Part shown: positions 17,791 through 63,284 of the stretch, piece after piece
Position numbering within the stretch: position 1 is the stretch's first letter
How the letters are laid out: each line of letters starts with the position of its first letter
Assembly (NCBI GenBank): GCA_900316305.1
Contig: ONCM01000008.1
Coordinates: 6,991-70,990, forward strand
DNA from: an uncultured Bacteroidales bacterium
Lineage (GTDB): Bacteria; Bacteroidota; Bacteroidia; Bacteroidales; WCHB1-69
DNA length: 64,000 bases
Reading direction: 5' to 3'
Program-made: the position numbers and the translations under genes
Notes under the pieces: model-generated
Told to the model about the DNA's origin: nothing
The model's database searches: none
The model's input: the letters and a program-made list of their open reading frames with translations, nothing else

Positions 17791-17856
17791 ATTTGTTTAG
17801 CTTTATTATTTCGAACGGATTTAACGCTATTTTCTTAAAAAAATTTTATGTCTTGA

Positions 17857-19503
17857 CTATTTTGTCTCCAAATAACTTCTCAACTCTTTGGGAAGATAGA
17901 ACGTGTTATTGATGGGCATATAGACAATCACGGAGTTAAGATCAACTCTTTTCTTGTTGACCATCACATAGTTATCGTAGCTATTGGCCACCAAAACGTT
18001 TTTCTTATTCTTGACAGTCAGACGATAGTTGTATTTGTCCAAACTGTCGATTTGTATCTGATAACCCTCAAACACCTGGTCATGTTTGGCATAGATGTCA
18101 GCGGTGAGCTTCTCCAAGGTACCGGTCAAGCCCATCTGTCTGCATAGGTACTTGTGAACGTCAATATTGGTCGGAACACCCACAAGTCTATCATTTTGAG
18201 GATGATAGATCGCCAGAAATACGTTTTCAATGGTATGTCCGAAGGTGGTGAAACCAAAGTAGGTGCGACCGTAGAGCACCTGGCTGAGCATCTTGCACAT
18301 GGAGAGGTTACCCGTGCGCTGTTCCTTAGGCGTGGAGGATTTGTCGTAGTCACGGGCGGTGGCGAGATAGGTGAGCTCGGCGGGTTGCGGGGTGAAACCG
18401 AAGTATGTTTCAAAGAGTTGCGGCCACTCGGTGGTATCCACAGCTTTGAGTTTCTCACCCATGGTCCAGTTGGAAAGCTTGTAATCGTCGATGGGACTCA
18501 TGAGCTGTTTCAGTGACAGTTTGTCGTATCCGTCACGACTGGCTTTGGGATTGCCAATGGTGACAGCACCCGTACCATGGTCGGGCAGAATCACCACCAC
18601 CGTTTCGCCGTTCTTTTTAGCAAAATCCAGTGCCACTCCACAAGCCTTGTCGAATTCCAGGAACTCAATAATGGCGTTTTTCGCATCATTGTCGTGTGCG
18701 GCCCAATCGACCTTGCTGCCTTCCACCATCAGGAAGAAGCCATCTTTATCCTGGGAGAGCAAATCAATGGCTTTTTGCGTCATTTCGGCTATAGAAGGCA
18801 CCTTTTGCTGATCTGACTCCAGCCAATAAGGCATTGAGCTTTCGCCAAACAAAGCCCAAACGGGAGTTGTAGAACAGCTTCTAAAGCCTTGGATGTCATC
18901 CAGATATACATTATATCCACTCTCTTTCAGATCATTCTGAAGATTATCGCTAAGGTAACTGACACCGCCGCCCATCACCACATCCACGTGGTTATGCGCC
19001 ATTTGCGGGGCGATCATGCCATATTTGCCACGCTTGTACGTGTGTGCGGAACAGTCTGCGGGGGTGGCGTGCGGGAACTCGCAGGTGAAAACAAGTCCCG
19101 TGGATTTATGTTGCAACATCTTAGCGGCTTCAAGGACAGTGGCCAACGGTTGGTAAGCGCGAGTGGCATCCACCGGAACCAAATCGTGATCGGTGGCCAC
19201 AGGATAGGTGGAAACGAAACCCGTTTGGGAAGGCTGTCCCGACACATAACAAGAGGTGGTTGGAGCCGAATCACCGATGGGGGCATCAGAGGAATTCGTA
19301 CGCACCAAACCGCAAAGGTAAGGGTCTATGTTCAAAGTAGTTTTGGTGGAATCCATGTAGGTTTGATACCAGCGGGCGGCGGAGAGCAGACTCGTGGAGG
19401 TGCCGTCCGGGATCATCAGAATCACGTTTTTGACGGGCTTGGGTTGCGCCATCGCACACAACAACGTGATACTCAGTAAACTATAAAGAACGAAACGTTT
19501 CAT
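17857..19503 (-). CDS. Alkaline phosphatase family protein (secreted)
   Basis: Signal peptide; IPDGTS, GDSAPTTS (Ser nucleophile context), DWAAHDND and LPDHGTG metal-ligand-like motifs. Confidence 0.75.
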   Translation of the reverse strand: MKRFVLYSLLSITLLCAMAQPKPVKNVILMIPDGTSTSLLSAARWYQTYMDSTKTTLNIDPYLCGLVRTNSSDAPIGDSAPTTSCYVSGQPSQTGFVSTYPVATDHDLVPVDATRAYQPLATVLEAAKMLQHKSTGLVFTCEFPHATPADCSAHTYKRGKYGMIAPQMAHNHVDVVMGGGVSYLSDNLQNDLKESGYNVYLDDIQGFRSCSTTPVWALFGESSMPYWLESDQQKVPSIAEMTQKAIDLLSQDKDGFFLMVEGSKVDWAAHDNDAKNAIIEFLEFDKACGVALDFAKKNGETVVVILPDHGTGAVTIGNPKASRDGYDKLSLKQLMSPIDDYKLSNWTMGEKLKAVDTTEWPQLFETYFGFTPQPAELTYLATARDYDKSSTPKEQRTGNLSMCKMLSQVLYGRTYFGFTTFGHTIENVFLAIYHPQNDRLVGVPTNIDVHKYLCRQMGLTGTLEKLTADIYAKHDQVFEGYQIQIDSLDKYNYRLTVKNKKNVLVANSYDNYVMVNKKRVDLNSVIVYMPINNTFYLPKELRSYLETK

Positions 19504-19525
19504 TTCACCTATTTTTTAAAACGCG

Positions 19526-19533
19526 CAAAGATA
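19526..19533 (-). promoter_or_regulatory. -7 box TATCTTTG (alkaline phosphatase)
   Basis: TAnnTTTG on the minus strand, 22 nt upstream of ATG 19503. Confidence 0.55.
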
Positions 19534-19577
19534 CATTTTTTTAGGATGTGTAAGAGGATAAATCGTGGCGAAAACGA

Positions 19578-20642
19578 TTACGACATTTCCGTCAATTGGG
19601 TCGCCGCCTTGTATGGGGAAATCTGCTTGGATTGAATCTTCGGAATCAGTTCGTCAATGGTGTCCTGAATAGCATCATTATTGTAAAAACGGTTATGAAG
19701 CGTGAATTCTATCCAGTGGTAGAAAATATTGACTAACTGTTCGTTACGAGTTCTTTCAAAACTACCGTTACCACGGGTGAGCGTGACGAAATCTTGGATA
19801 ATCTGCCACACTTTGTCCAAAGCGAAGTTTTCCAGCGCGGAGCAGACCTCCACAGGCACATCCCAGCCGTTGTCGCTTTTCGGGAAAAGCCTGAGGGCAG
19901 CACGATACTGCGATGCCGCCATGCGAGCTTTATGCAGATTGTCGCCATCAGCCTTATTAATTACCAGTGCATCAGCCATTTCCATAATACCGCGTTTGAT
20001 ACCCTGCAACTCATCACCAGCACCGGCCAGCATGAGCAGGAGGAAGAAATCGACCATGGACTTGACCACGGTTTCGGACTGCCCCACCCCGACGGTCTCC
20101 ACGAGAATCACATCGAAGCCGGCGGCCTCGCACAGGATGATGGACTCGCGGGTCTTACGGGCCACGCCGCCCAACGCAGAACCAGAGGGCGAAGGCCGGA
20201 TGAACGCGTTCGGATCAACGGAAAGGGTCTCCATGCGGGTCTTGTCACCCAAGATACTGCCTTTGGTGCGCTCGCTGGAGGGATCGATGGCCAGCACCGC
20301 CAGCTTATGTCCCTGCGAGGTGAGCATTCCCCCGAACGACTCGATGAACGTGCTCTTGCCCACACCGGGAACACCGGTAATACCAACGCGCAGCGAATTG
20401 CCAGAATGCGGCAGACAGCGTTCGATGATATCCTGTGCCATCGTGATGTGCGCGGGATTCTCGCTCTCAATCATGGTGATGGCGCGACTGAGAATGGTGC
20501 GGTTGCCGTCCAAAATTCCCTTAACGTAATCATCCACTGTGAGTTCCGTTTTCCTATGCCGCTTGAAATTCGGGTTCACCTGCATGGGCTGTTCCACGCC
20601 CGCGCGCTCCGTCAATGCCGATTCGTAATAGGGATTAGCCAT
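19578..20642 (-). CDS. meaB: MeaB/ArgK-type G3E GTPase (methylmalonyl-CoA mutase chaperone family)
   Basis: P-loop GVPGVGKST, ETVGVGQSE and INKADG motifs. Confidence 0.85.
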   Translation of the reverse strand: MANPYYESALTERAGVEQPMQVNPNFKRHRKTELTVDDYVKGILDGNRTILSRAITMIESENPAHITMAQDIIERCLPHSGNSLRVGITGVPGVGKSTFIESFGGMLTSQGHKLAVLAIDPSSERTKGSILGDKTRMETLSVDPNAFIRPSPSGSALGGVARKTRESIILCEAAGFDVILVETVGVGQSETVVKSMVDFFLLLMLAGAGDELQGIKRGIMEMADALVINKADGDNLHKARMAASQYRAALRLFPKSDNGWDVPVEVCSALENFALDKVWQIIQDFVTLTRGNGSFERTRNEQLVNIFYHWIEFTLHNRFYNNDAIQDTIDELIPKIQSKQISPYKAATQLTEMS

Positions 20643-20643
20643 C

Positions 20644-23067
20644 TTATTTCCAATTAAAGTTGAACATTACCGCCTCTTTCATCGATTCAAAATAGTGAAA
20701 TGTCATCCCTTCGATGAAATTCTCCTTGATATCGTCAATATCTTTCTTGTTCTCCTTGGACATCACAATGTCGAAAATGCCGCAGCGTTTGGCCGCCAAG
20801 ATCTTCTCCTTGATACCGCCCACGGGCAGCAATTTGCCGCGCAGGGTGATTTCGCCGGTCATGGCAATTTTCTTACGCACAGGGACTTGCGTAAAAGCAG
20901 AGACCAACGCGGTGAGGATAGTAATGCCGGCGGAAGGACCGTCCTTAGGCGTGGCACCTTCCGGCACGTGCACATGCACTTTCTTCTTGGTAAAGTCCTC
21001 AGGATTAATACGATAGTCGGAAGCATGAGCTTTCAAGAACTCGTAAGCGATGGTGGCAGACTCCTTCATCACGTCACCGAGATTGCCCGTCATAGTGAGT
21101 TCGCCCTTGCCTTCGCTGGTGATGGCCTCCACGAAGAGAATCTCACCGCCGACAGCCGTCCAAGCGAGACCGGTGGCCACGCCGGGAACATCACCATCGA
21201 GCGCTTTCTCCTTCTGGAAAATCGGGGAACCGAGAATCTCTTTCAGCTCCTCAGGTTTAACCTCAGGACCCATCGTGCCCTTCTGCACCAGTTGGGCAGC
21301 ACGTTTGCGGATAATCTTGGCGAGGGTGCGCTCCAAACCACGCACGCCCGACTCACGGGTGTAATCCTCGATCACATGTTTCACCGTCTCCTCCGGAATC
21401 GTCAGCTGTTCGGAATCCAATCCGTTGTCTTTCAGCTGTTTCGGAATGAGATGTTTCATCGCAATAGCCAGCTTCTCCTCAGCCAGATAGCCGGGAATGT
21501 CGATCACTTCCATACGATCCAGCAACGCAGGATGGATGCTGTTGAGGTTGTTGGCCGTGGCGATAAAGAGCACCTTGGAGAGATCGAACGGGGTCTCCAA
21601 GTAGTTGTCGTTGAAGGTGCTGTTCTGTTCGGGATCCATCACTTCGAGCAACGCTGCAGAAGGATCACCGTTGACGCCCATGCCAGAGACTTTGTCGATT
21701 TCGTCCAGCACGAAAACAGGGTTGGCATACCCAACCTTGCGCATGTTTTGGATGATGCGGCCGGGCATTGCGCCGATATAGGTTTTGCGGTGACCGCGGA
21801 TTTCCGCCTCGTCATGCACACCGCCCAAAGAGATGCGCACATATTTCCGCCCGATGGATTCCGCTATGGAGCGGCCGAGGGAGGTCTTACCCACACCTGG
21901 AGGGCCTGCCAGACAGAGAATCGGCGATTTCATGTCGCCCTTCAACTTCAAAACAGCCAAATATTCCAAAATGCGCTCCTTCACCTTCTCCAAACCGTAA
22001 TGGTCCTTGTCGAGAATCTCACGCGTCTTTTTCAAATCGAAATTATCCTCGCTGTACTCGTTCCACGGAAGGTCGAGCAGCAGCTCCAAATAGTTGAGCT
22101 GCACCGAGTAATCGGGTGACATATAGTTCGTCCGCTGCAGCTTTTTGAACTCTTTCTCAAAAAGATCAGCCGTCTCCTGATTCCATTTTTTCTTAGCTGC
22201 CCGTTCGCGCAATTCATCAAAATCCTTCTCCGTGGAAGGACCGCCCAGTTCCTCCTGGATGGTCTTCATCTGTTGGTTCAGGATGTATTCGCGCTGCTGT
22301 TTTTCCATCTCCTGACTGGACTTGGTGTGGATCTGATGTTTGATTTCCACCACCTGCAGTTCATGGGTCAGCATGTCCAGCACCTTATCAGCACGGGCCA
22401 TAATATCCTGCGTTTCAAGCACATCCTGCTTCTCCGCCACATCCAGGGTAAGGTTGGAAACAATGAAGTTGAGCAGGAAGGCGTTGCTTTCGATATTATT
22501 GATTGCCGTCATCGCATCGCGCGGGGTGCCGGGTGTCAGCTGCATGATGTTGCCCATCGTCTCGCGAATCATCAGCATCTTGGCCTTAAACTCCTCCGTT
22601 TCAATCACTTTCGGATCCAAATCGTTGGTTGCATAGGGATGGGCTTCGCAACGGTAGTAGGGACGGGAGTGGACCACGCGCCCCACCTCGAAAGGTTTGA
22701 CGCCCTGCACGACCATCATAAGATTGCCGTCCGGGATATTGAGGGTCTTGAGGATGCGGGCGAGGGTGCCGACGCGGTACATGTCCTTGATGGTGGGATC
22801 CTCCACGCTGTTGTCGCGCTGGGCCACTACGCCGATGGGCTCGTCGGAGTTGGCGCAGTCACGAGCCAACCGCAACGATTTTTCACGGCCGATGGTGATG
22901 GGGATGACCATGCCGGGGAAGAGCACGGTGTTGCGCAGCGGGAGAAGGGGAACCTCCTCCGGCAAATATTCTTCGCTGAGCTTCACCTCATCCTCCACAG
23001 ACAGGATAGGGATAACATTCGACTCCCCTGTCATAAAACCGCCTGCAGCTATAATATCTTTAATCAT
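20644..23067 (-). CDS. lon: ATP-dependent Lon protease
   Basis: 807 aa with LON N-domain, AAA+ Walker [10 protein letters not shown] and protease motif PKDGPSAG. Confidence 0.95.
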
Positions 23068-23082
23068 TCCAATACATTACTT

Positions 23083-23122
23083 AAAAAAAAACTGACCTTT
23101 TTCGGGTTACAAAAAAGGTCAG
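23083..23122 (-). terminator. Intrinsic terminator of rpmE2
   Basis: 11-bp stem CTGACCTTTTT/AAAAAGGTCAG, followed on the minus strand by a 9-nt T-run. Confidence 0.8.
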
Positions 23123-23130
23123 CAAAAGTA
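23123..23130 (-). promoter_or_regulatory. Possible -7 box TACTTTTG (lon), abutting the rpmE2 terminator stem
   Basis: TAnnTTTG on the minus strand, 55 nt upstream of the lon ATG. The predicted start site falls inside hairpin 23092-23122. Confidence 0.4.
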
Positions 23131-23143
23131 CAAAATATATGGA

Positions 23144-23413
23144 TTACTTGGATTTGCCAGCTTCAAAATGGCGGGCATACTTGTTGCGGAATTTATCCAC
23201 ACGACCAGCGGTGTCAACCAGCTTCATCTTACCGGTGAAGAAGGGGTGTGAGGTGCTGGAAATCTCTAATTTCACGAGCGGATATTCATTTCCGTCTTCC
23301 CATACAATCGTGTCTTTCGTGTTAACCGTTGACTTGGTCAGGAAGGCATAATCGTTGGACATGTCCTTGAAAACCACGGTTCTATACTCCTTAGGATGGA
23401 TGTCTTTTTTCAT
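23144..23413 (-). CDS. rpmE2: 50S ribosomal protein L31, type B (no Zn ribbon)
   Basis: [10 protein letters not shown]...HPFFTGK; lacks the CxxC pairs. Confidence 0.9.
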
Positions 23414-23448
23414 AATATTATTATATTTTTTTAGTCGTTAAAATTGGA

Positions 23449-23473
23449 CGGCAAAAATACACTTTTTTTTGAT
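23449..23473 (-). promoter_or_regulatory. Extended promoter ATCAAAAAAAAGTGTATTTTTGCCG (rpmE2)
   Basis: Minus-strand reading; -7 box at 23452-23459. Confidence 0.7.
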
Positions 23474-23514
23474 ATGAACAAGAGGGGGTGGAAATTTTTT
23501 ATTCACACCTGAAA

Positions 23515-24297
23515 TTATTCGTAGTAGTCGAACCGCAGATGCTTCACTGAGATGCCCTTGTTCTGCAGTTCCTGCAGCGACTGGATGCCGATTTTCAGGT
23601 GGGTGAGCGCGAAATTCTCCGTCACCTTCTTGTCCGATTGCTCTGTCTTGATACCCTCGGGGAGCATCGGCTGGTCGGAGACCATCAGCAACGCGCCCGT
23701 GGGGATGCGATTGTAGAAGCCAACCGAGAAGAGCGTGGCGGTCTCCATATCCACTGCCGTGGCGCGGATGCTGCGGAGGTAGTCCTTGAACCTCTCATCG
23801 TACTCCCACACGCGACGGTTAGTCGTATAGACCGTTCCCGTCCAATACTCTAACCCATAACTACTTATAGTGGCTGAAATAGCTTTCTCCAAGTTGAAAG
23901 CGGGCAGCGCGGGCACCTCTTCGGGGAAGTAGTCGCGGGAAGTACCTTCACCACGGATACCGGCAATGGGCAAGAGCATGGCACCCAAACCGATATAAGA
24001 TTTCAGACTGCCGCATTTGCCGAGAAACAGCACGGCCTTGGGCTTCACCGCCGTCAGCAAGTCCATGATGGTGGCCGCATTCGGACTCCCCATCTGGAAG
24101 TTGATGATGGTGATATTGTCGCTTGAGGCGCACTGCATTGAACTCTCCTTCCCGTAGATCTCGGCACCGGTCACATCCGCGAAATTCTGCACATAATTTT
24201 GGAAATTGGTCAGCAAAATGTACTGTCCGAACTTTTCCAACGGCATCCCCGTATAACGCGGGAGCCAGTTTCTTACTATTTCGTCCTTTGATTTCAT
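23515..24297 (-). CDS. Nucleoside phosphorylase-fold protein (short AMP-nucleosidase-like)
   Basis: 260 aa with a PNP_UDP_1-like core (GKCGSL, VDMETATLF). Confidence 0.6.
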   Translation of the reverse strand: MKSKDEIVRNWLPRYTGMPLEKFGQYILLTNFQNYVQNFADVTGAEIYGKESSMQCASSDNITIINFQMGSPNAATIMDLLTAVKPKAVLFLGKCGSLKSYIGLGAMLLPIAGIRGEGTSRDYFPEEVPALPAFNLEKAISATISSYGLEYWTGTVYTTNRRVWEYDERFKDYLRSIRATAVDMETATLFSVGFYNRIPTGALLMVSDQPMLPEGIKTEQSDKKVTENFALTHLKIGIQSLQELQNKGISVKHLRFDYYE

Positions 24298-24306
24298 CTT
24301 TTTTTA

Positions 24307-24384
24307 ATGGTTATGGGTCATGGGTTATAGGTTATTGAATGGTTAATGGTTAAATGGTCAATAGTCAACGGTCAACGGTCAACT
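24307..24384. repeat. Heptad-based tandem repeat, GGTTAWN/GGTCAAN family (about 11 units)
   Basis: ATGGGTC ATGGGTT ATAGGTT ATTGA ATGGTTA ATGGTTAA ATGGTCA ATAGTCA ACGGTCA ACGGTCA AC. Overlaps the aroB 3' end. Confidence 0.9.
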
Positions 24385-25369
24385 TCGATAATTGGCAATC
24401 AGGAATTGCATGTCCAATACGATCAATTAATGTAAAATTCAAAGTACCGTCGTGGTTTTTTTTGTCATTTTGCATATATGGAAGCAGTTTTTCGAGAAAT
24501 TCCGGGGTGATTTCGGGTATCTCGAAATGTTTTGTCAGAAAATCGGCAATCAGATGCCAATCCTCTTGCGGAAGATGCCCGAGTTTTGCGGAAAGGAGGC
24601 TTTCGTAATAGAGCCCTTGGGCCACCGCAATGCCGTGCGCTATCGGTCTGTCCATCTTGGCAGCATAACTTTCCAGCGCATGGCCGAACGTGTGACCGAA
24701 GTTCAGGATATGCCGCAGATTTTCGTCTTTCGAGTCTTTCCTGACTACATCTTGCTTAAAGTTAATACAAAAATCAATGTATTCCTGCTTGATTTCAGGG
24801 AAAGTGTCCGACTCGCACAATTCCCCGAACAGTTTTGCTGAACCGATGAGCGCGTATTTCACAAACTCTCCAAAACCGCTGAGCAATCCCTCCTGCGGAA
24901 GGGTTTTCAGCAAAGTAACATCAGCAGGCAACTGAATGTCAGGAAAATAAATCGTCCCGACTCCGTTTTTCATACTGGACAGGTTCACTCCGGTTTTGCC
25001 ACCAATCGCCGCATCAATCATGGCGAGCAACGTGGTGGGACAGTTGGCGTAACGGATGCCGCGCTTATAGGTGGAAGCCACAAAACCTCCCAAGTCGCAG
25101 ACCATGCCACCACCAAAATTCAGCAGAAAGACATCTTTATCGTATTGTTTTTCAGCAAGATAATCCCATACTTGTGTCGCTGTTCGAATGGATTTGGTCT
25201 TTTCTCCCGGAGCCAGTACCAGCTTGTCCACCGCAACATGTTCCGACAGTCCGTCGAAATATGCACCATGGCATCGGTCCACATTCTTATCGGTGAGAAT
25301 CACCACTTTCCGAATGTTCTCCCGACGAAAATGCTCGATGAGCTGCTGTATGGTCTTGCTTTTACCCAT
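24365..25369 (-). CDS. aroB: 3-dehydroquinate synthase
   Basis: GGGMVCDLGGFVASTYKRGI, DAAIGGKTGVN and HTFGHALE motifs. Confidence 0.9.
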   Translation of the reverse strand: MGKSKTIQQLIEHFRRENIRKVVILTDKNVDRCHGAYFDGLSEHVAVDKLVLAPGEKTKSIRTATQVWDYLAEKQYDKDVFLLNFGGGMVCDLGGFVASTYKRGIRYANCPTTLLAMIDAAIGGKTGVNLSSMKNGVGTIYFPDIQLPADVTLLKTLPQEGLLSGFGEFVKYALIGSAKLFGELCESDTFPEIKQEYIDFCINFKQDVVRKDSKDENLRHILNFGHTFGHALESYAAKMDRPIAHGIAVAQGLYYESLLSAKLGHLPQEDWHLIADFLTKHFEIPEITPEFLEKLLPYMQNDKKNHDGTLNFTLIDRIGHAIPDCQLSKLTVDR

Positions 25370-25725
25370 TATCCTTCCATTTGCACGGCCACGTATTCAG
25401 TTTTGCCATCCAACGGCGGATTCAACTTGCAAAGTTTCACCGTAACATGCTGTACCTGTGGGAAATCGATCTTGATGTCACGAACGATGTGGTCGGCCAC
25501 CGTCTCAATCAGATGCTGCGGCTCGTTCATCACCTTCTGGATGGTCTTATACACCAGCTGGTAATTCACGGACTTCTCCACGTCATCGCTCGCAACCGCC
25601 GCCTCCGCATCATACGTAAGCGTCACATCCACAGTAAAATGCGTGCCAATCTTCTGTTCCTCTTCGAAACATCCATGATACGCATAAAATCTCATTCCGC
25701 TGAGAAAAATCGTAGTGTTTTTCAT
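25369..25725 (-). CDS. folB: Dihydroneopterin aldolase
   Basis: 118 aa; GCFEEEQKIGTHFTVD...VNYQLVY is typical FolB. Its stop overlaps the aroB ATG by 1 nt. Confidence 0.85.
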   Translation of the reverse strand: MKNTTIFLSGMRFYAYHGCFEEEQKIGTHFTVDVTLTYDAEAAVASDDVEKSVNYQLVYKTIQKVMNEPQHLIETVADHIVRDIKIDFPQVQHVTVKLCKLNPPLDGKTEYVAVQMEG

Positions 25726-25743
25726 AATTTACATTCTCTCTAA

Positions 25744-25776
25744 AACTACTAACTGCTAACTACTAACTGCTAACTA
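25744..25776. repeat. Heptad tandem repeat, AACTNCT family (4.7 units)
   Basis: AACTACT AACTGCT AACTACT AACTGCT AACTA. The first 32 nt are identical to 29170-29201. Confidence 0.95.
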
Positions 25777-26907
25777 TTTCGGTGTCATTTTCAGCATTAT
25801 AATCGTGATAATCAGATAGATGATATTCGGCAGCCACGTGCCAAGGACGGGGGGCAGACCGCCAGAGACGGAGAAGACCGTGGACACCTGCTGGAGGAAG
25901 ATGAACGAGAAGGCCAACCCCATGCCGATGAAGATATGTACACCGACACCACGGGTGGATTTACGGCACGAAACGCTCACGCCCAGTAACGTCATGATAA
26001 TGATACCCAGTGGGTTAGCCAAACGTTTGTGCTGCTCAATCTGATAGTTGGCCAACAGCGACGAACCCCTCATCTTCTCCTCCTTGATGAACTGCCGCAA
26101 CTCGGTGTAGGACATCGTCTCGCTCACGAACGCATCCTGATAGAGGTTCCGCGGCAGGATGTTGAACACCGTGTCGAATTCCTCCCCGCCGATTATCAGC
26201 TCCATGCCCTGAGGGGTGATTACGCGACGGGTATAGTTGTGCAATTGCCAGCATTGGTTCTCTTCGTCGTAGTTGATCGTTCGGGCGGAAATCTTCTGCC
26301 GGATAGAATTGTTGTCAAACTCCTCGTAAGTGAAATTATAGCCAACGCCCTCCATCTTGTCCCATCTTTCCACGAAAATGTAACTGTTCTTGGAATTCTT
26401 GATATGCAGATAGGTGGTATTCACCCCGCGCCGACCAAAATACTGATACTTGAAATCATTGAGCTTCCGGTTGGTATTCGGAACGATGAAGTTGGCCAAA
26501 ACCAGCGAGATAATCATGATAATCACCGCCCCTGTAACGTACGGAACCAGCATTCGGTTGAAACTGATGCCGTTGTCGAAGATGGAGATGATTTCATTGC
26601 GCGAGGATAGCTTCGAGGTGAACCAGATGACACTGATGAAGGTGAACAACGGGATGAAAAGGTTGATAAAATAGGGGATGAAGTTGAAGTAGTAGCCTGT
26701 GATAACCTCTTTGGTCGGAATATTGTGCGACAGAAAACGCTGGATGTTCTCCGACACGTCGAACACCACCACGATGACCATCAGCAGCGTGATAGCAAAC
26801 ACCACCGTGCCCAACATCTTCCGAAGCAAATAGCCGTCCAAAATCTTCCAGCCTATCTTCTCCCGAACACGCTCATCAAAATCCTTAATACGCTTAAATA
26901 TTGACAT
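25774..26907 (-). CDS. LptF/LptG-family LPS export permease
   Basis: YjgP/YjgQ-like topology and sequence. Start uncertain: ATG 26907 (MSIFKRIK) is preferred, because ATG 26943 lies in the loop of hairpin 26929-26956. Confidence 0.75.
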   Translation of the reverse strand: MSIFKRIKDFDERVREKIGWKILDGYLLRKMLGTVVFAITLLMVIVVVFDVSENIQRFLSHNIPTKEVITGYYFNFIPYFINLFIPLFTFISVIWFTSKLSSRNEIISIFDNGISFNRMLVPYVTGAVIIMIISLVLANFIVPNTNRKLNDFKYQYFGRRGVNTTYLHIKNSKNSYIFVERWDKMEGVGYNFTYEEFDNNSIRQKISARTINYDEENQCWQLHNYTRRVITPQGMELIIGGEEFDTVFNILPRNLYQDAFVSETMSYTELRQFIKEEKMRGSSLLANYQIEQHKRLANPLGIIIMTLLGVSVSCRKSTRGVGVHIFIGMGLAFSFIFLQQVSTVFSVSGGLPPVLGTWLPNIIYLIITIIMLKMTPK

Positions 26908-26928
26908 CCTGTTATTTATCGTTGTTTC

Positions 26929-26956
26929 GTAGAGACGCGCCATGGCACGTCTCTAC
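26929..26956 (-). terminator. Hairpin GTAGAGACG-(CGCCATGGCA)-CGTCTCTAC (GTAG-hairpin family)
   Basis: 9-bp perfect stem downstream of the S9 peptidase gene and upstream of lptF/G. The loop contains ATG 26943. Confidence 0.55.
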
Positions 26957-26961
26957 AAACC

Positions 26962-27010
26962 CTGTTAACCATTAACCTCAATAACCTATAACCAATAACC
27001 TATAACCATT
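26962..27010. repeat. Heptad-based repeat, GGTTAWN family in inverse orientation (NNTAACC units)
   Basis: TGTTAACC ATTAACC TCAATAACC TATAACC AATAACC TATAACC ATT. 26978-26993 is the exact reverse complement of 24323-24338. Confidence 0.9.
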
Positions 27011-29090
27011 ATTTCAGCCATTGATCCAACCACCTAAAGAACTCCCTCTGCCACAACATGGCGTTCTGCGGTGTAGAGACGAAGTGGCACTCCTCGGGGA
27101 AGAAGAGGAAACGGCTCGGAATGCCCTGCATCTGCGCGGCGTCGAAGGCCTGCATACCCTCGGTGTAGGGAATGCGGAAGTCCTTGCCGCCGTGGATGAC
27201 CAATATCGGGGTGTCCCAGTTGCCGACGAACTTATGCGGCGAAATGTTGTAGCTCGCCGGTACCGGATTCGCCCAATAGGGACCTCCGATGTCGTGGTTG
27301 GCGAAGAAGAGCTCCTCGGTGGTACCGTACCAACTTACTAAGTTGAACATGCCGCAGTGCGCGATGAACGCCTTGAAGCGCTTTTCGTGGTGGCCGGCGA
27401 GCCAATAGACGCTGAAGCCGCCGTAGCTGGCTCCCACACAGCCCAACCGGTTCTCGTCCACGTAAGGTTCTTTCGCCACATCGTCGATGGCGGCGAGGTA
27501 ATCCTTCATGTTCTGTCCACCATAATCACAGCTGATCTGATCGTTCCACTCGCTGCCGAAACCGGGCACGCCACGACGATTCGGCGCCACGATAATGTAG
27601 TCGTGTGCGGCCATCATCTGGAAGTTCCAACGGTAGGAGAAGAACTGGCTCACAGAGGATTGCGGACCACCTTGACAGTAGAGCAAAGCGGGATATTTCT
27701 TGGTGGAATCGAAGTTCGGGGGCAAAATCACCCACACGAGCATCTGCTTGCCGTCAGTGGTCTTCACCCAACGCTTCACCGTCTTCGCCGGCGTGATTTT
27801 GTCCAAAACATCCTTGTTGATGAAGCTCAGCTGTTTCACCGATTTGTCTTTCAAGTTGACAGCGTAAATTTCGGAAGGCTCCGCGTGCGTAGTACGTGTC
27901 ACAATCAGCTGACTTCCATCCACTTGCACAGTGTTGTAGTCGTAATCACCATGGGTGATTTGTTCGATGATACGCGATTCCACATCCATCTTATAGACAT
28001 GATGCGTGGCCTCGATGCAGCTGATGAAATAGACCGTTTTGCTGTCTTCGCTCCAGGAAAAGCCGGTGGCATCCTGATCGAAGTCGGTGCTGTAATCCTC
28101 TGCGGTGCCCGTCTGGAAGTCGTAGATCATCAAACTGTGCTTTTCCGACTCGAAGCCGTCGGTTTTCATGTTCCACCACACCATCTTCTTGCCGTCGGGG
28201 GAGATCACCGGGTCCATGTCGTAACCTTTGTTGAACTCCGTCAGATTCTGCGTGGTCTTCGTTTTCAGATCGTAGAGGTAAATATCGGTGTTGGTGCTCT
28301 CTGCGAACTCCTTACCTGTCAGCTTCTTACAGCAATAAACTAGTTTGCTGCCATCGGGAAGCCAGGCCACCTCCTCCATACCTCCGAACGGCGGGTTCGG
28401 GCAGTGGAATTTCTGGCCCTCCAGCAAATCCACGGCGTTATCCATGGAAGGGTAGTCGATCACGATAAGATGACTGTAAGTACCGTCGGCCCAATAGTTC
28501 CAATGACGGTACATCAGGTCGTCGTAAATCATAGCCTCCGCATCCGGCAAATCGGGGTAGCGTTCCTCGATGGTCTGTTCCAGCTGCACGTTTTGGAAAT
28601 AGCAAATGTGTTTCATGTCAGGCGCATAGCTGAAACCGTTGATGTCGCCATCCACATTGCTGATGGCTTTGGCGTTTTTGCCGTCAGGATCAGCTTCCCA
28701 AATCTGCATTCCTTTGTCGTTGGCGCGCAGGTAGGCGATTTTCTTGCCGTCGGGCCGCCAGATCGGCTGCATCTCGCTTTCCTCCGAAACCGTGATGCGG
28801 GTGGGTTCGCCGCCTGCGGCCGGCATGGTGTAAAGTTCCGTGTTGCCTTTGTTGACGCGGTAGTCGTAGTAGGTCACCGTGTAGAGCAGCGTCTTGCCGT
28901 CGGGAGAGACTTGCACGTCGCCCAAACGTCCGAGATACCAGAGGATTTTCTCGTCCATCACGCCCTTCGAGAAGTCGGGCGTTTCGCGGCTCTCCTTGTC
29001 AATCACCGCCGCCGTTTTCTCGTTCTTCGCTTGTTTACAACCACTTACCATTATCATAATTAGGGTTAAACAGAAAAATACTTTCTTCAT
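27009..29090 (-). CDS. S9-family serine peptidase lipoprotein (beta-propeller plus alpha/beta hydrolase)
   Basis: Lipobox MVSGC, TolB-like propeller repeats, nucleophile elbow GASYGG, and C-terminal IHGGKD...H. Confidence 0.85.
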   Translation of the reverse strand: MKKVFFCLTLIMIMVSGCKQAKNEKTAAVIDKESRETPDFSKGVMDEKILWYLGRLGDVQVSPDGKTLLYTVTYYDYRVNKGNTELYTMPAAGGEPTRITVSEESEMQPIWRPDGKKIAYLRANDKGMQIWEADPDGKNAKAISNVDGDINGFSYAPDMKHICYFQNVQLEQTIEERYPDLPDAEAMIYDDLMYRHWNYWADGTYSHLIVIDYPSMDNAVDLLEGQKFHCPNPPFGGMEEVAWLPDGSKLVYCCKKLTGKEFAESTNTDIYLYDLKTKTTQNLTEFNKGYDMDPVISPDGKKMVWWNMKTDGFESEKHSLMIYDFQTGTAEDYSTDFDQDATGFSWSEDSKTVYFISCIEATHHVYKMDVESRIIEQITHGDYDYNTVQVDGSQLIVTRTTHAEPSEIYAVNLKDKSVKQLSFINKDVLDKITPAKTVKRWVKTTDGKQMLVWVILPPNFDSTKKYPALLYCQGGPQSSVSQFFSYRWNFQMMAAHDYIIVAPNRRGVPGFGSEWNDQISCDYGGQNMKDYLAAIDDVAKEPYVDENRLGCVGASYGGFSVYWLAGHHEKRFKAFIAHCGMFNLVSWYGTTEELFFANHDIGGPYWANPVPASYNISPHKFVGNWDTPILVIHGGKDFRIPYTEGMQAFDAAQMQGIPSRFLFFPEECHFVSTPQNAMLWQREFFRWLDQWLK

Positions 29091-29145
29091 TATTCGTAAT
29101 CAAAATTTGTTTTGTCCTTTAAACAGACATTAAAAATTCAACCCG

Positions 29146-29153
29146 CAAAAGTA
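29146..29153 (-). promoter_or_regulatory. -7 box TACTTTTG (S9 peptidase 27009..29090)
   Basis: Context GAAAAAGTGTACTTTTGCGGG on the minus strand. Confidence 0.6.
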
Positions 29154-29169
29154 CACTTTTTCCCCATAT

Positions 29170-29204
29170 AACTACTAACTGCTAACTACTAACTGCTAAC
29201 TGTA
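29170..29204. repeat. Heptad tandem repeat, AACTNCT family (5 units), between divergent promoters
   Basis: AACTACT AACTGCT AACTACT AACTGCT AACTGTA. Confidence 0.95.
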
Positions 29205-29211
29205 AAAATCG

Positions 29212-29219
29212 TATCTTTG
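29212..29219 (+). promoter_or_regulatory. -7 box TATCTTTG (radical SAM - lplA)
   Basis: TAnnTTTG 22 nt upstream of ATG 29242. Confidence 0.6.
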
Positions 29220-29241
29220 CCGCCTGAAAAATCCATCCACA

Positions 29242-30138
29242 ATGATGATATTCTACTTAGGCAGCTGGTATTTCCAGACCAAATTCCTGAAACGGCGCAA
29301 ACCGCTGCAGACGGTGCTGTTCATCACCAACAGGTGCAACTTGTCGTGCTCGCACTGCAGCGTCTTTGACCACGAACACCCGACCGACAAAAGCTACGGG
29401 CAAATCCGCGAGGAACTGCAGTATTCTTACGGATTGGGATCCCGATTCGTCGATTTCGAGGGCGGCGAACCGACCCTCTGGCGCGACGGTGACCGTCGGA
29501 TCAACGACCTCATCGACCTCGCGCACGAAATCGGCTTTTTCACCACCACCGTGACTACCAACGCACAACAACCCTTCGCAGGGCTCAAAGCCAACTCGAT
29601 ATGGGTCAGCATGGACGGCATCCACGAATATCATGACGCCGTGCGGGGCCAGGGCACCTTCGACAAATTAGTGAAAAACGTGGATAGCTGCGGTCATAAA
29701 GCGCTGAGTGCCAATATGGTCATCGACTCCAACAATTACGTCAACGTGATGGAGACGCTGCAGTTTGTGAAGGAGCACCCTACCTTCAAGAGCATCGCCT
29801 TTAACTTCTATACCCCCGCCTTTTTCAAAGACGAAGATCCGCTGATTTTGGATTGGGACAAACGTGTTGAGTTGATTGATAAGTTGATAGAACAAAAGAA
29901 GAAACGGATGCCCATCATGAATTCCGTCTCGGGACTGAAACGGATGAAGGACCTGTCGTTTGAAAAGGTCTGCTGGATGTGCAACTACATCCTGCCCGAC
30001 GGCACGCGCCTGCCCGAATGCGTGGGCAAAAGCGCGGGTGTCTGCGACCAGTGCGGTTTCTGCATGGCCGGGGAAATGCGTTCGGTGATGGATTTTCGGC
30101 CGGATACGCTGATGGCGGGACTTGATCTTAGACGATGA
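29242..30138 (+). CDS. Radical SAM protein with C-terminal Cys-rich (SPASM/twitch-like) region, subfamily unknown
   Basis: CNLSCSHC (CxxxCxxC) at aa 32-39, GGEPTLW, and the C-terminal cluster CWMC...C...CDQCGFC. Confidence 0.75.
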   Translation: MMIFYLGSWYFQTKFLKRRKPLQTVLFITNRCNLSCSHCSVFDHEHPTDKSYGQIREELQYSYGLGSRFVDFEGGEPTLWRDGDRRINDLIDLAHEIGFFTTTVTTNAQQPFAGLKANSIWVSMDGIHEYHDAVRGQGTFDKLVKNVDSCGHKALSANMVIDSNNYVNVMETLQFVKEHPTFKSIAFNFYTPAFFKDEDPLILDWDKRVELIDKLIEQKKKRMPIMNSVSGLKRMKDLSFEKVCWMCNYILPDGTRLPECVGKSAGVCDQCGFCMAGEMRSVMDFRPDTLMAGLDLRR

Positions 30139-30333
30139 ATGAGCGATGAATGAACGATGAAAAACGATGAAATTCATCGACCAACATTCATCGATAAACA
30201 TTCATCGACCAACATTCATCGACCAACATTCATCGACCAACATTCATCGACCAACATTCATCGACCAACATTCATCGATAAACATTCATCGACCAACATT
30301 CATCGACAAAAATTCATCGACAAAAATTCATCG
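30133..30333. repeat. 14-bp tandem array (11 units, TTCATCG core x12) preceded by 4 inverted CGATGAA copies
   Basis: I counted the units directly (see findings). A perfect 15-nt palindrome, CGATGAAATTCATCG, lies at 30165-30179. Confidence 0.95.
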
Positions 30334-30339
30334 ATCAAA

Positions 30340-31335
30340 ATGGAGAACATACGATATATCACCCTCAACAGCAACTCCCCGTACCACAATCTGGCGACGG
30401 AGGAGTATCTGTTGCAGCAAACCAAAGACAATGTTTTCATGTTGTGGCAGAACGACAACACGATTGTCATTGGTCGTCACCAGAACACGGCGGCGGAAAT
30501 CAACCAAGAATACGTTGACAGTCACCATGTTAATATAGTAAGAAGACAGACTGGCGGTGGTGCGGTTTTCCACGATATCGGGAATCTCAACTTCTCGTTC
30601 ATCCAGAACATTGAACCTGGTAGCAAGGAGATTGATTTCCTGAAGTATTTGCAACCGATTGTGGATGCGCTGCAGTCGTTAGGTGTTCCGGCAGAGTTTT
30701 CCGGACGCAACGATCTGGTGATTGACGGCAAGAAGATCTCCGGCAACGCCATGATGTTTTACGAAAACCGTGTGTTGGAGCACGGAACGCTGCTGTTCTC
30801 GTCTCAGATGTCAGATGTGGCGAACGCCCTCAAGGTTGATCCGAGCAAATTCGATGACAAGGCGGTGAAGTCTGTGCGCAGTCGCGTGACCAACATTTCC
30901 GAACATCTTCCCGAACCCATGACCGTTTTGCAGTTCAGAGACTACCTGATGGACTTCATTATGAAGCAGAACCAAATGACTGAACTGCAGAATCTTACCA
31001 ACGAAGAAGAGGCGGTTGTGGAGCAGCTCATGAAGAACAAATACCAGACTTGGGAGTGGAACTACGGCAAATCGCCGGAGTATTCAATGAACAAGAAAAT
31101 GCGGACGAAGGGCGGCTCCGTGCAAGTGATTGCCGATATCCAAAAAGGCTATATCCGCGACTTGCAATTCTTCGGCGACTTCTTCGGCGAAAAAGACCCG
31201 CAAGAACTTGCAGACCTGCTAATTGGAACTCGAATGGACAAAGATTCCGTTGCCAATGCCCTTACGGACGTGAACATCAATGATTATTTCCATAATGTCA
31301 CGAAAGAGGAAATAATCCATTTGTTAACCGCATAA
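30340..31335 (+). CDS. lplA: Lipoate--protein ligase A
   Basis: RRQTGGGAVFHDIGNLNFSF and GKKISGNA motifs. Start set at ATG 30340; the in-frame upstream 61 codons are just the 14-bp DNA repeat read through. Confidence 0.85.
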   Translation: MENIRYITLNSNSPYHNLATEEYLLQQTKDNVFMLWQNDNTIVIGRHQNTAAEINQEYVDSHHVNIVRRQTGGGAVFHDIGNLNFSFIQNIEPGSKEIDFLKYLQPIVDALQSLGVPAEFSGRNDLVIDGKKISGNAMMFYENRVLEHGTLLFSSQMSDVANALKVDPSKFDDKAVKSVRSRVTNISEHLPEPMTVLQFRDYLMDFIMKQNQMTELQNLTNEEEAVVEQLMKNKYQTWEWNYGKSPEYSMNKKMRTKGGSVQVIADIQKGYIRDLQFFGDFFGEKDPQELADLLIGTRMDKDSVANALTDVNINDYFHNVTKEEIIHLLTA

Positions 31336-31338
31336 TAT

Positions 31339-31357
31339 GGGCGTATGCGATACGCCC
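31339..31357 (+). terminator. Hairpin GGGCGTAT-GCG-ATACGCCC after lplA, followed by CTACA
   Basis: 8-bp stem and 3-nt loop. The right arm plus flank, CGCCCCTACA, is identical to the right arm of hairpin 60428-60457. Confidence 0.5.
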
Positions 31358-31382
31358 CTACAATAACCACAAATAACCGTTT

Positions 31383-32033
31383 ATGAAACTGATTGTATTC
31401 GACCTCGACGGCACTCTCATCAATTCGCTGGAAGATTTGGCGGATTCGGCTAACCATGTGCTGGAACAGCACGGCTTTCCCATTCATCCAGTGGATGCTT
31501 ACCGCTATTTTGTGGGCGACGGCGTGCGCAAACTCATTGAGCGCATATTGCCAGCGGAGCAACGCACCGACGCGCAGATCGAACAGTGCAAAGCCGAATT
31601 TGTAGATTACTACAAAATCCACATGGAAGACAAAACTTCTGTTTATGAGGGAATTACAGAATTGCTCAAAGCGTTGAAAGCCCGTGGGTTGAAGATTGCC
31701 GTGGCCACGAACAAAGTGCACAGCGCCGTGGCCCCGCTGATGGCCAAATATTTCCCGGAGATTCGTTTCGACTCGATGATCGGCCAGCGGGAGGGCATTC
31801 CCGTGAAGCCCGCCCCGCAAATCATGTTCGACATTCTGAAAGAGACGGGTTGTCAGCCTTCTGAAGCGCTTCATGTGGGCGACACCGCCACGGACATGCA
31901 ACTTGCGCACAACGCAGTGGTCACGCCCGTGGGCGTACTCTGGGGCTACAGACCATTGGAAGAATTGCAGGAGGCTGGTGCACGCTATATTATTGAGCAT
32001 CCCCTTGATTTATTGGAAATCCTTGACCATTGA
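31383..32033 (+). CDS. HAD-superfamily hydrolase (phosphoglycolate-phosphatase-like)
   Basis: Motif I FDLDGTL, motif II ATNK, motif III GDTATD. Confidence 0.8.
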   Translation: MKLIVFDLDGTLINSLEDLADSANHVLEQHGFPIHPVDAYRYFVGDGVRKLIERILPAEQRTDAQIEQCKAEFVDYYKIHMEDKTSVYEGITELLKALKARGLKIAVATNKVHSAVAPLMAKYFPEIRFDSMIGQREGIPVKPAPQIMFDILKETGCQPSEALHVGDTATDMQLAHNAVVTPVGVLWGYRPLEELQEAGARYIIEHPLDLLEILDH

Positions 32034-32075
32034 TTTTGGCTATTGGCTGTTGGCCGTTAGCTGTTGACTATCAAG
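32034..32075. repeat. Heptad tandem repeat, NTTRGCY family (6 units), left arm
   Basis: TTTTGGC TATTGGC TGTTGGC CGTTAGC TGTTGAC TATCAAG, starting immediately after the HAD gene stop. Confidence 0.9.
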
Positions 32076-32086
32076 TACGCCCCCAA

Positions 32087-32121
32087 AACTACTAACTACT
32101 AACTACTAACTACTAACTTCT
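32087..32121. repeat. Heptad tandem repeat, AACTNCT family (5 units), right arm
   Basis: AACTACT x4 then AACTTCT. Includes the ispF stop codon. Confidence 0.95.
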
Positions 32122-32592
32122 CACTATCGTGGCCGCTGCCGTGGCCGCAATACCTTCGCCAGCACCCGTGAAGCCCATCTTCTCGTTGGTCTTGGCTTTC
32201 ACCGCTATTCGGTCGGACTCGACCTTCAGCAGTTCGGAAAGCCTGCCGATAATCGCATCGACATGCGGTTTCATCTTCGGCTTTTCCAAGATGAGCGTAC
32301 AGTCCAAGTTGTTGACCTTCCAGCCTCTTTCCGCAAGGAGCTCCACCACTTTGGCGAGCAGTTTAGTGCTGTCCACGTTTTTCCAAGTGGGGTCGTTGTC
32401 CGGGAAGTAGGTACCGATGTCTTTAAGTCCTGCCGCGCCCAAAAGTGCGTCGCAAACGGCATGGATTAGCACGTCGCCATCAGAATGAGCGGCCAACCCC
32501 AGTTCGTATGGAATGACAATGCCCCCAATGACCAAGGGTCTGTCGGGGGCAAATCTATGGGAATCGTATCCAAATCCTACGCGAAAATCCAT
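32113..32592 (-). CDS. ispF: 2-C-methyl-D-erythritol 2,4-cyclodiphosphate synthase
   Basis: GFGYDSHRF and AHSDGDVLIHA metal-binding motifs; 159 aa. Confidence 0.93.
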   Translation of the reverse strand: MDFRVGFGYDSHRFAPDRPLVIGGIVIPYELGLAAHSDGDVLIHAVCDALLGAAGLKDIGTYFPDNDPTWKNVDSTKLLAKVVELLAERGWKVNNLDCTLILEKPKMKPHVDAIIGRLSELLKVESDRIAVKAKTNEKMGFTGAGEGIAATAAATIVRS

Positions 32593-32635
32593 AATTTTGG
32601 CTTTTGGCTGTTAGCTGTTGGCTTTGGCTGTCTGG
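32593..32635. repeat. Heptad tandem repeat, GCTKTTR family (about 6 units), left arm
   Basis: AATTTTG GCTTTTG GCTGTTA GCTGTTG GCTTTG GCTGTCT, starting 1 nt upstream of the ispF ATG. Confidence 0.85.
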
Positions 32636-32640
32636 TACAA

Positions 32641-32672
32641 CCTGCTAACTGCTAACTACTAACTGCTAACTA
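32641..32672. repeat. Heptad tandem repeat, AACTNCT family (4.5 units), right arm
   Basis: CTGCTAA CTGCTAA CTACTAA CTGCTAA CTA. Includes the porV stop. 32647-32675 is identical to 25751-25779. Confidence 0.95.
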
Positions 32673-33908: not shown

Positions 33909-34008
33909 TCTATATTTTTATTCAATTTTTAATACACAAAAAAACTCCACGCTTAACGACAATGTTCGCGTTTTATTATATCCAAACCAAAAAAAAATTT
34001 CTTTTTAT

Positions 34009-34016
34009 CAAAAATA
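34009..34016 (-). promoter_or_regulatory. Possible internal -7 box TATTTTTG (porV)
   Basis: TAnnTTTG on the minus strand, 100 nt upstream of the porV ATG, inside the AT-rich porU-porV spacer. Confidence 0.35.
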
Positions 34017-34051
34017 ATCATAACGCATTGATATTCAACACGTCTTATTTT

Positions 34052-34100
34052 ATTCTACATTCTGCATTCTTCATTCTGCATTCTTCATTCTACATTATAG
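34052..34100. repeat. Heptad tandem repeat, ATTCNNC family (7 units)
   Basis: ATTCTAC ATTCTGC ATTCTTC ATTCTGC ATTCTTC ATTCTAC ATTATAG. The last unit contains the porU stop. Confidence 0.95.
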
Positions 34101-63279: not shown

Positions 63280-63284
63280 TTTCG

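Follow-up and report, generated by a model that had tools for sequence, protein, structure and literature searches.

Heptanucleotide tandem repeats next to stop codons in the gene junctions of a rumen Bacteroidales bacterium

Heptanucleotide repeats in bacteria have been known since 1990. The name STRR is said to go back to Mazel and colleagues in that year, with CCCCAGT, TTGGTCA and CAACAGT reportedly the units that they described in Calothrix. Here we analyse repeats of this kind in a 64,000-nucleotide stretch of DNA from an uncultured cattle-rumen bacterium of the order Bacteroidales (WCHB1-69 lineage; assembly GCA_900316305.1, contig ONCM01000008.1, positions 6,991 to 70,990), hereafter called the window, taking as our focal element a tract at 25744-25776 between lptFG and folB. 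An earlier note, made from the letters of the window, had compared this tract and its relatives with the STRR elements of heterocystous cyanobacteria.

According to a later paper, three tandem heptanucleotides were first reported in Calothrix PCC 7601 (cited in PMC4692102). As summarised there and in a second paper, Mrázek, Guo and Shah (2007) found heptamers to be the commonest long simple repeat in many bacteria, a class designated LSSR(5-11) (PMC4679880, PMC4692102). GGGAATC repeats have been described in Xanthomonas and GGGGAYT repeats in Nostoc (Rehm 2015; PMC4692102). Heptamer repeats vary in length and sequence among close relatives, and relatives often have short spacers that are free of repeats (PMC4679880, PMC4692102). 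MacGregor (2015; PMC4679880) described TAACTGA direct repeats in marine Beggiatoaceae, in Cyanobacteria and in five Bacteroidetes, and other heptamers have been noted in Gramella, Aequorivita and Elizabethkingia (PMC4679880). The earlier note had been aware of no equivalent description for Bacteroidota; the heptamer repeats in five Bacteroidetes are such a description.

Periodicity and placement of the tracts

The focal tract is made of AACTACT and AACTGCT units in alternation, two of each, followed by AACTA, and reads AGTTAGY on the coding strand. Tandem Repeats Finder (TRF) assigned it a period of 7 with 4.7 copies, and a period of 14 with 100% matches. The stop codon of lptFG, TAG at 25774-25776 (CTA on the plus strand), lies inside the first unit, so that the tract does supply this stop as had been claimed, and all six reading frames are closed by the tract. 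It does not fill the spacer, which had also been claimed, as 18 unique nucleotides (25726-25743) remain between the tract and the folB start at 25725. The 33-mer is found again at 29170-29202 with one mismatch, at 32640-32672 with two, and twice within 32087-32126 with three; zero matches were expected from 100 dinucleotide-preserving shuffles. Two identities reported by the earlier note are exact, namely the 32 nt common to the focal tract and the copy at 29170, and the 29 nt of 25751-25779, flanking ATTT included, that recur at 32647-32675. Related tracts that it had placed near 6085 and 32087 were seen at 6084-6114 and 32087-32126.

An autocorrelation scan of the window detected 8 tracts with a period of 7 and 10 with a period of 14, and 0 or 1 at each other period from 4 to 15. 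We placed the tracts on a gene map built from the called genes of matching public contigs together with open reading frames (ORFs). The map has about 38 spacers of 15 nt or more. Thirteen of them have high scores at period 7 or 14, with other periods at background, and these 13 spacers hold at least seven unit families. Together the tracts, about 17 in number, amount to 763 nt. None of any consequence is found within a gene of this window, 92% of which is covered by ORFs. Between 24.3 and 34.1 kb there is a tract in every spacer except that between lplA and the gene for a HAD hydrolase, which has heptamers in other strains. TRF and autocorrelation confirm the strict 7-nt period, on the gene map the tracts are intergenic or touch final codons only, and the earlier description of the tracts as rich in stops on both strands is borne out. 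With regard to membership of the STRR/LSSR class, the window has head-to-tail 7-nt units beyond chance (8-13 tracts at period 7 or 14, versus 0-1) and several families at many non-coding loci within 64 kb.

The tracts of the window lie at a median distance of -0.5 nt from a stop codon, versus 27.5 nt from a start codon. We extended the count to all loci, including those of other strains, species and phyla presented below, taking co-directional spacers with at least 8 nt of slack and uniform placement as the expectation: of 146 tracts, 47 are no more than 3 nt away from the upstream stop, where 8.3 would be expected, and 15 are equally near a start. Of the 12 tracts that abut a stop, 11 leave no frame open on the upstream gene's strand, which is not so for non-abutting tracts. 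A stop on the coding strand occurs in 21 of 24 units of the window's clade (11.7 expected); for cyanobacterial units the figure is 22 of 49 (22.3 expected), that is, no enrichment. The most compact means of having stops on both strands is a TTAG or TTAA core. The coding strand carries AGTTAG in 48 cases and the opposite strand in 25, a bias and not a rule. Read on the strand of the upstream gene, the junctions run aaaTAG then TTAGCAGTTAGT after porV and lptFG, aaTTAGCAG at ddl, and, for the S9 peptidase gene, TAA then TGGTTATAGG; both ispF and the DHQS gene terminate within their tracts.

Flanking the tracts are genes of a housekeeping kind, namely lptFG, folB, ispF, porV, ddl, nusB, rimM and the genes for DHQS and PNP. 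The window also contains type IX secretion genes and TAnnTTTG promoter motifs, and matching samples come from bovine and sheep gut; on these grounds the organism belongs with the rumen Bacteroidales. Of the tract spacers next to a gene start, 2 of 9 contain the TAnnTTTG motif, versus 14 of 23 other spacers. Most tracts therefore occupy promoter-less, presumably co-transcribed junctions or lie between convergent genes.

The tracts, with their coordinates in the window and their strand, are:

6084-6114, minus strand: units TTAGCAG, TTAGTCG, TTAGTAG and TTAGCAG, forming the entire 26-nt gap from the ddl stop to the ATG of a glucosaminidase/LysM gene
15833-15863, minus strand: TGAATNN units that cover the nusB stop, a 23-nt spacer and the ATG of a DUF1573 gene
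24298-24383, minus strand: composite of TTGACYA, TTAACCA and ATAACCY, from the last 5 DHQS codons and stop (24365-24367) to 9 nt before the PNP start
25744-25776, minus strand: the focal tract, AACTACTAACTGCTAACTACTAACTGCTAACTA, reading AGTTAGC/AGTTAGT, 4.7 copies, on the coding strand
26966-27008, minus strand: GGTTATW/GGTTAAT units, immediately 3' of the S9 peptidase stop (TAA, 27009-27011)
29169-29202, minus strand: AGTTAGY tract, 32 nt identical to the focal one, in the divergent spacer of an S9 peptidase gene (minus) and a radical-SAM gene (plus)
30132-30338, plus strand: the 11-mer ACGATGAATGA in 3.7 copies (30132-30171), then an array of the 14-mer ATTCATCGACCAAC in 11.9 copies (30172-30338), in the radical-SAM/lplA spacer
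32034-32068, plus strand: TTGGCYN/TTAGCTG tract, directly 3' of the HAD hydrolase stop (TGA, 32031-32033), in the convergent HAD/ispF spacer
32087-32126, minus strand: AGTTAGT in 5.7 copies, covering the final codons and stop of ispF (stop 32113-32115)
32595-32629, minus strand: GCYAAMA tract, partial complement of TTRGCY/AGTTAGC, the 3' arm of the PorV-IspF hairpin
32640-32672, minus strand: AGTTAGY tract running from the stop codon of PorV and supplying the 5' arm of an imperfect hairpin
34052-34096, minus strand: GAATGNA in 6.4 copies, starting at the stop (TAA) of a C25 peptidase gene, with a TAnnTTTG promoter-like motif of porV downstream
58253-58354, plus strand: TTRGCYN in 9 copies, a 9-nt loop and a complementary GCYAAAR arm, together a long imperfect hairpin, starting 1 nt past the rimM stop, in the convergent rimM/ham1 spacer
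63245-63275, plus strand: weak, marginal ATTCNNC tract between divergent genes, closely followed by a TAnnTTTG motif

At ddl, the stop codon (TAG) lies within the first unit of the tract, and the GCYAAMA tract reaches to 2 nt before the ispF start. The tract at 29169-29202 is flanked on both sides by TAnnTTTG promoter-like motifs. In the radical-SAM/lplA spacer the 11-mer array overlaps the radical-SAM stop and the 14-mer array extends to the lplA start; open in two plus-strand frames, the latter gives rise to a spurious longer lplA ORF (30157-31335). This ATTCNNC tract at 63245-63275, of a family that the earlier note had included among its strict heptamers, is marginal.

Strains, related species, other phyla and neighbouring loci

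A look-up of three window proteins yielded another 24 loci. All come from independent metagenome assemblies, for which several studies used several assemblers, and all have the tracts; their identity to the window is about 95-99.8%. The region itself is present in 24 or more DNA runs, drawn from no fewer than 10 studies. Absence from independent assemblies, which would have spoken against the repeats, is thus not what the 24 other rumen-metagenome loci show, and the tracts are not an assembly artefact.

Spacer lengths, taken between anchors inside the flanking genes, differ among strains in 8 of 11 tract spacers, and 20 of the 29 non-zero differences are multiples of 7. Depending on the strain, the spacer measures 34, 48 or 62 nt between LptFG and FolB; 59, 66, 67, 74 or 88 nt between DHQS and PNP; 79, 86 or 100 nt between HAD and IspF; 77 or 91 nt where it holds the tract at 32640-32672; 135, 142, 149 or 156 nt between RimM and Ham1; 179, 186, 200 or 207 nt between PorV and C25; and 117 to 202 nt between radical-SAM and lplA, where the 14-mer array lies. 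The tract at 29169-29202 has the same length in 6 strains, as has that at 6084-6114 in 7. Spacers without tracts, many of them with a TAnnTTTG motif, are almost invariant in length, and gene bodies are free of indels outside one repeat, within the coding sequence of rpsP (ribosomal protein S16). The polymorphism between strains that the earlier note had proposed to survey therefore exists and runs mostly in 7-nt steps, and with 8 of 11 spacers polymorphic the tracts display the whole-unit copy-number instability of STRR/LSSR repeats. Tracts can also be exchanged outright. One strain (L007) has AGTTAGY in the S9-LptFG spacer where other strains have GGTTATW, and the replaced segment is a recombinant tract that extends 40 nt into lptFG. 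The lplA-HAD spacer has alleles with and without heptamers, which differ also in the end point of lplA. In another species (locus L154, about 3370-3500) the HAD-LplA spacer holds a 20-nt tandem repeat, CGCATACGCCCGGCAAGAAT.

To reach related species, we scanned metagenomes with the DHQS protein, which gave 13 loci at 65-98% identity. Each has 1 to 8 period-7 tracts and almost none at other periods, and all of these tracts are intergenic except one, which lies in an extended ORF. Heptamers follow the DHQS gene in 12 of the 13 lineages. Their units drift, with ATAACCY, AACCYTW, TTAACCN, TAAACCY and CAAACCA found among species whose DHQS is 65-77% identical. At one locus (L156, about 3165-3200) translation of DHQS continues through a CAAACCA array without stops, which becomes the C-terminal tail of the protein, and the stop of the gene overlaps the ATG of PNP. 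Ahead of folB some lineages have AGTTAGY and others RGGTTAG or GGAAGNA; two loci (L147 and L150) have an lptFG-folB gap of 8-12 nt only, and a third (L157) has a promoter there instead. Related taxa, then, do not carry unrelated, non-periodic sequence at all of these spacers, an outcome that the earlier note would have counted against its proposal; periodicity is kept at the same junctions while the units have drifted. Periodicity is long-lived at a junction, yet the tract itself is dispensable and can be replaced. TTTAGGG/CCCTAAA and AACCCTT arrays occur at L157 (2330-2363 and 12020-12063) and L147 (3432-3483), and theirs is the plant-type telomere unit, a match that is probably coincidental.

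The unit extends far beyond this group. We scanned one genome per species, for 185,579 species, for four consecutive AGTTAGN units and obtained at least 118 loci. Among the matches listed, at least 58 are from Nostocales or other cyanobacteria, at least 31 from Bacteroidota and at least 29 from other phyla; the Bacteroidota among them include several Bacteroidales of rumen and gut, Prevotellaceae, Muribaculaceae, Alistipes, Paludibacteraceae and flavobacteria. These loci hold many more period-7 tracts, far above other periods. The comparison with STRR elements that the earlier note had drawn is apt, given the same arrays in at least 58 loci of Nostocales and other cyanobacteria. Four AGTTAGN units in a row are found, too, in 52 stretches of viral contigs (IMG/VR, L165-L216), some labelled as metagenome-assembled genomes of giant viruses; true phage, prophage and host contamination are all possible sources of these arrays.

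Four rumen or sheep metatranscriptome runs compared with 23400-34400 have the tracts in their assembled contigs. The contigs break inside every tract and are uninformative on 3' ends or read-through. In bins that contain a tract (runs X1, X2, X3 and X7) contig depth is 10- to 100-fold higher, and many contigs match the tract only and then continue into unrelated sequence, so that these tracts occur as well in numerous other transcripts, or organisms, of the rumen community.

Several other repeats and insertions were seen at neighbouring loci. Downstream of the tract at 26966-27008 lies the palindrome GTAGAGACG..CGTCTCTAC (26929-26956). Palindromes of the form GTAGRGRCG-loop-CGYCYCTAC are found there and at 11856-11883 and 60429-60456, with a related hairpin near 31350 and 0 expected by chance. 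They lie in two convergent spacers and in the S9-LptFG spacer, and may represent a REP-like element or a terminator without a T-run. The GtrA-LigT spacer, which has the copy at 60429, is 43-44 nt shorter in two strains. The coding repeat of rpsP (57614-57709) is Ala/Glu-rich, stands at the gene end and has periods of 9, 12, 27 and 36 nt, and the length of the gene varies among strains. A further coding repeat, at 50711-51691, consists of 6.7 copies of a 147-nt (49-residue) unit with about 80% identity inside the gene (47790-54062) for a 2090-residue SprB-like cell-surface protein of the gliding/type IX secretion kind. Some strains (L137, L139 and L143) have an island of about 7.6 kb between gcvP and rpsP (orthologues of window 56989 and 57134); that of L143 also has guanylate-cyclase-like and PycTM genes, which suggests a Pycsar-like defence system. 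In one strain (L144 15567-16232, GCA_018396375.1) a HigB-toxin/HTH-antitoxin pair is inserted between oppositely directed S9 peptidase and aminotransferase genes, at the site orthologous to the window spacer 63165-63312.

Origin and possible roles

We consider that the tracts are probably heptanucleotide microsatellites of the STRR/LSSR class, which slippage drives and a survivorship filter shapes. Arrays would be made and resized at the level of DNA, by replication slippage or unequal exchange between units, in gaps that are transcribed and untranslated, mostly operon-internal or convergent junctions and mostly without a promoter motif. Selective tolerance would then set where an array can lie and what it can be made of. 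A 7-nt unit would be barred from expanding within coding sequence, and likewise from the promoter and translation-initiation zone of the next gene, and the array would hence end up pressed against the upstream stop codon. Only stop-bearing units would be tolerated there, period 7 putting their stops in all three frames. Where the boundary of an array moved into the 3' end of a gene, the protein would end a few residues early, and arrays would thus often come to provide the final codons and stop of the upstream gene, as at lptFG, ispF, DHQS and ddl. That abutting arrays are closed and others are not would follow if only arrays with stops in all frames rescue the frame after small deletions or boundary shifts. 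The same filter would let a stop-free array become a protein tail, as at L156, and have several genes take their stop from an array, and a loose orientation bias is what a process acting on DNA would be expected to leave.

Self-renewal by slippage would allow periodicity to outlast the sequence of the unit. Bacteroidales lack Shine-Dalgarno pairing, and likely effects of the tracts are that they would set intercistronic spacing and place unstructured RNA before genes without a Shine-Dalgarno site; complementary tracts facing each other would form long imperfect hairpins. We infer that the tracts need have no required function. The earlier note had listed an all-frame stop among possible functions: the property stands, frame closure being seen, and as to purpose we prefer the survivorship filter.

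Some findings weigh against this explanation. One unit, in copies of up to 32 identical nucleotides, is found at three or more unlinked junctions, and AGTTAGN arrays are found in distant phyla; slippage from random seeds does not predict such recurrence, which needs gene conversion, a strongly favoured 'attractor' sequence or a factor that binds it. Species far enough apart for synonymous sites to be necessarily saturated still share tract family and orientation at a junction, in a compact genome with short spacers, and this hints at selection for maintenance. Anchoring to stops is seen also in cyanobacteria, with long spacers and units not enriched in stops, to which the filling of free space is less suited. 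Finally, slippage plus a filter does not account for the preference for 7 nt. Unit recurrence, retained family and orientation, and the preference for 7 nt together keep a binding-site hypothesis alive.

Under that hypothesis the tracts would be cis-regulatory arrays, tandem 7-nt sites for a protein, perhaps of the cold-shock-domain, S1 or RRM type, whose footprint on single-stranded RNA (or on DNA) is 7 nt, governing, in a phylum without Shine-Dalgarno pairing, translation re-initiation, operon polarity or mRNA stability at junctions with copy number as the tuner. Identical units at many junctions, a unit common to several phyla, and the conservation of family and orientation at orthologous junctions would all fit, as would the enrichment of tracts in promoter-less transcribed spacers, their presence in metatranscriptome contigs, and the lack of structure in most of them, which would leave them accessible. 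MacGregor (2015) put the same idea forward for TAACTGA, and the evidence cited in that paper has CspB bind one heptamer per protein (PMC4679880). We nevertheless regard this as rather unlikely, given at least seven unrelated unit families, in both orientations, next to unrelated housekeeping genes, with no spacer at the same junction in some lineages, and copy numbers that drift freely among near-identical strains. A bolder combination strikes us as less probable again: heptamer arrays would nucleate at stops generally across phyla and in Bacteroidales would have become selected intercistronic modules, each an all-frame stop block and a spacer, unstructured or able to form a hairpin, read in 7-nt register by a single-strand nucleic-acid-binding protein, setting operon polarity or re-initiation. 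If so, the AGTTAGN arrays of Nostocales, Bacteroidota and viral contigs would reflect a common factor and not coincidence.

We give little credence to transcription terminators or 3'-end stabilisers, above all paired tracts acting as bidirectional hairpins. In their favour are two spacers that fold far better than shuffled sequence, PorV-IspF (-22.4 kcal/mol, z = -4.7) and RimM-Ham1 (-39.9 and -40.9 kcal/mol on its two strands, z = -4.3 and -4.1), both of them consisting of a tract and then its partial complement. In RimM-Ham1, copy number changes in the unpaired part beside the stop codon and the paired core is constant among strains; a place directly after stop codons would also suit a 3'-end element. 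Most tracts, however, are unstructured. The focal tract (-5.7 kcal/mol, z = -0.55), the C-rich, G-poor DHQS-PNP tract (-1.8 kcal/mol) and the S9-LptFG and C25-PorV tracts have z scores near 0, and the convergent HAD-ispF pair does not fold either, there being no significant pairing between the tract at 32034-32068 and the AGTTAGT tract of that spacer (z near 0). A terminator scan of 15000-34999 called no tract; its sole strong call, a canonical terminator at 23091-23123, follows the L31 gene (rpmE). Since no tract combines a hairpin with a T-run, we rejected the intrinsic (Rho-independent) terminator, and the terminator function that the earlier note had offered fails for most tracts. Many tracts, moreover, lie inside apparent operons, where termination would silence essential genes (folB, ispF and the ddl cluster). 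A sigma-70 promoter scan found nothing at the tracts, and an Rfam scan of the window found only a tRNA at 13851-13923. Still more improbable, in our estimate, is a small mobile or templated element, MITE/REP-like or enzyme-added, spread by insertion and perhaps carried between phyla by phages. Identical 32-mers at unlinked loci, whole tracts swapped between strains, and the same arrays in 52 viral-contig stretches and across phyla could be taken for its traces. The flanks of the five AGTTAGY tracts are unrelated to one another, with no conserved termini, target duplications or nearby transposase, and length shifts by single units and not by whole elements, for which we rejected the MITE/REP-like candidate; the replacement in L007 is an ordinary homologous-recombination tract running into lptFG coding sequence. 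Contingency loci, at which copy number would toggle the expression of an adjacent gene (phase variation), we hold to be just as improbable. Copy number does vary in 7-nt steps among strains, and there is a precedent in the 7-bp repeats before the hmw genes of Haemophilus influenzae (PMC8262952, PMC12721329), but the neighbours here (lptFG, folB, ispF, ddl, DHQS, rimM) are housekeeping and not surface or virulence genes, and most tracts lie 3' of stops and not in promoters or 5' coding regions. From gene content and placement, this candidate too appears to be one to reject. Slippage under a survivorship filter is thus the explanation that we favour.

Comparison with known heptamer repeats

Whichever explanation proves right, this organism offers a clean natural data set, with many short arrays in tight, conserved housekeeping operons. 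Dozens of near-identical strain assemblies differ by whole units, and related species show drift and loss at the same junctions. In the heptamer-repeat literature that we found (PMC4679880, PMC4692102) there is no report of stop anchoring, all-frame closure or population-level polymorphism in unit steps; stop anchoring and frame closure make the old question, why 7 nt and whether there is any role, more testable. In practical terms, the tracts break short-read assemblies and metatranscriptome contigs and shift called stop and start sites, and they are possible strain-typing markers in rumen metagenomes.

With the hmw1A and hmw2A repeats of Haemophilus influenzae the tracts have in common tandem 7-bp units whose copy number is changed by slippage (PMC8262952, PMC12721329). 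Those repeats lie in the promoter or 5' untranslated region of an adhesin gene and grade its expression, whereas the window tracts follow the stops of housekeeping genes. Like the tracts, the TAACTGA repeats are direct heptamer repeats found between genes and missing from coding sequence. Both occur in scattered phyla including Bacteroidetes, and in both cases relatives often have shorter spacers free of repeats; the window units TAACTGC and TAACTAC are one base away. In Beggiatoaceae, however, the repeats run forward just upstream of starts. The window tracts abut stops, lie for the most part the other way round and share the window with many other unit families. TAACTGA itself occurs in the window as 2 single copies and 0 doublets. 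With the unit not tandem and the placement at stops (47 tracts abutting a stop versus 15 abutting a start, all loci), we rejected membership of a TAACTGA network.

The LSSR(5-11) class, so far as the summaries of it extend, matches the window in its over-represented, intergenic heptamers, its occurrence at the same junctions of related species with variation in length and sequence, and its inverted pairs. Unlike its GGGAATC and GGGGAYT members, the window units are not G-rich and form no quadruplexes. With STRR elements the tracts share tandem heptamers, several families per genome and intergenic dispersal, together with AGTTAGN arrays of the very unit of the window in at least 58 cyanobacterial loci. 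The canonical units CCCCAGT, TTGGTCA and CAACAGT, like GGGAATC, are nowhere tandem in the window, and for this reason, and with a Bacteroidales host, we rejected STRR in the strict cyanobacterial sense. The tracts differ from STRR elements also in that their arrays are short (3-9 units) and lie in tight operon junctions of a rumen Bacteroidales bacterium, and in that their units are stop-enriched in the window's clade and not in cyanobacteria. Set beside these systems, the repeat class is already known; what is new is its dense occurrence in rumen Bacteroidales, a host group outside the literature that we found.

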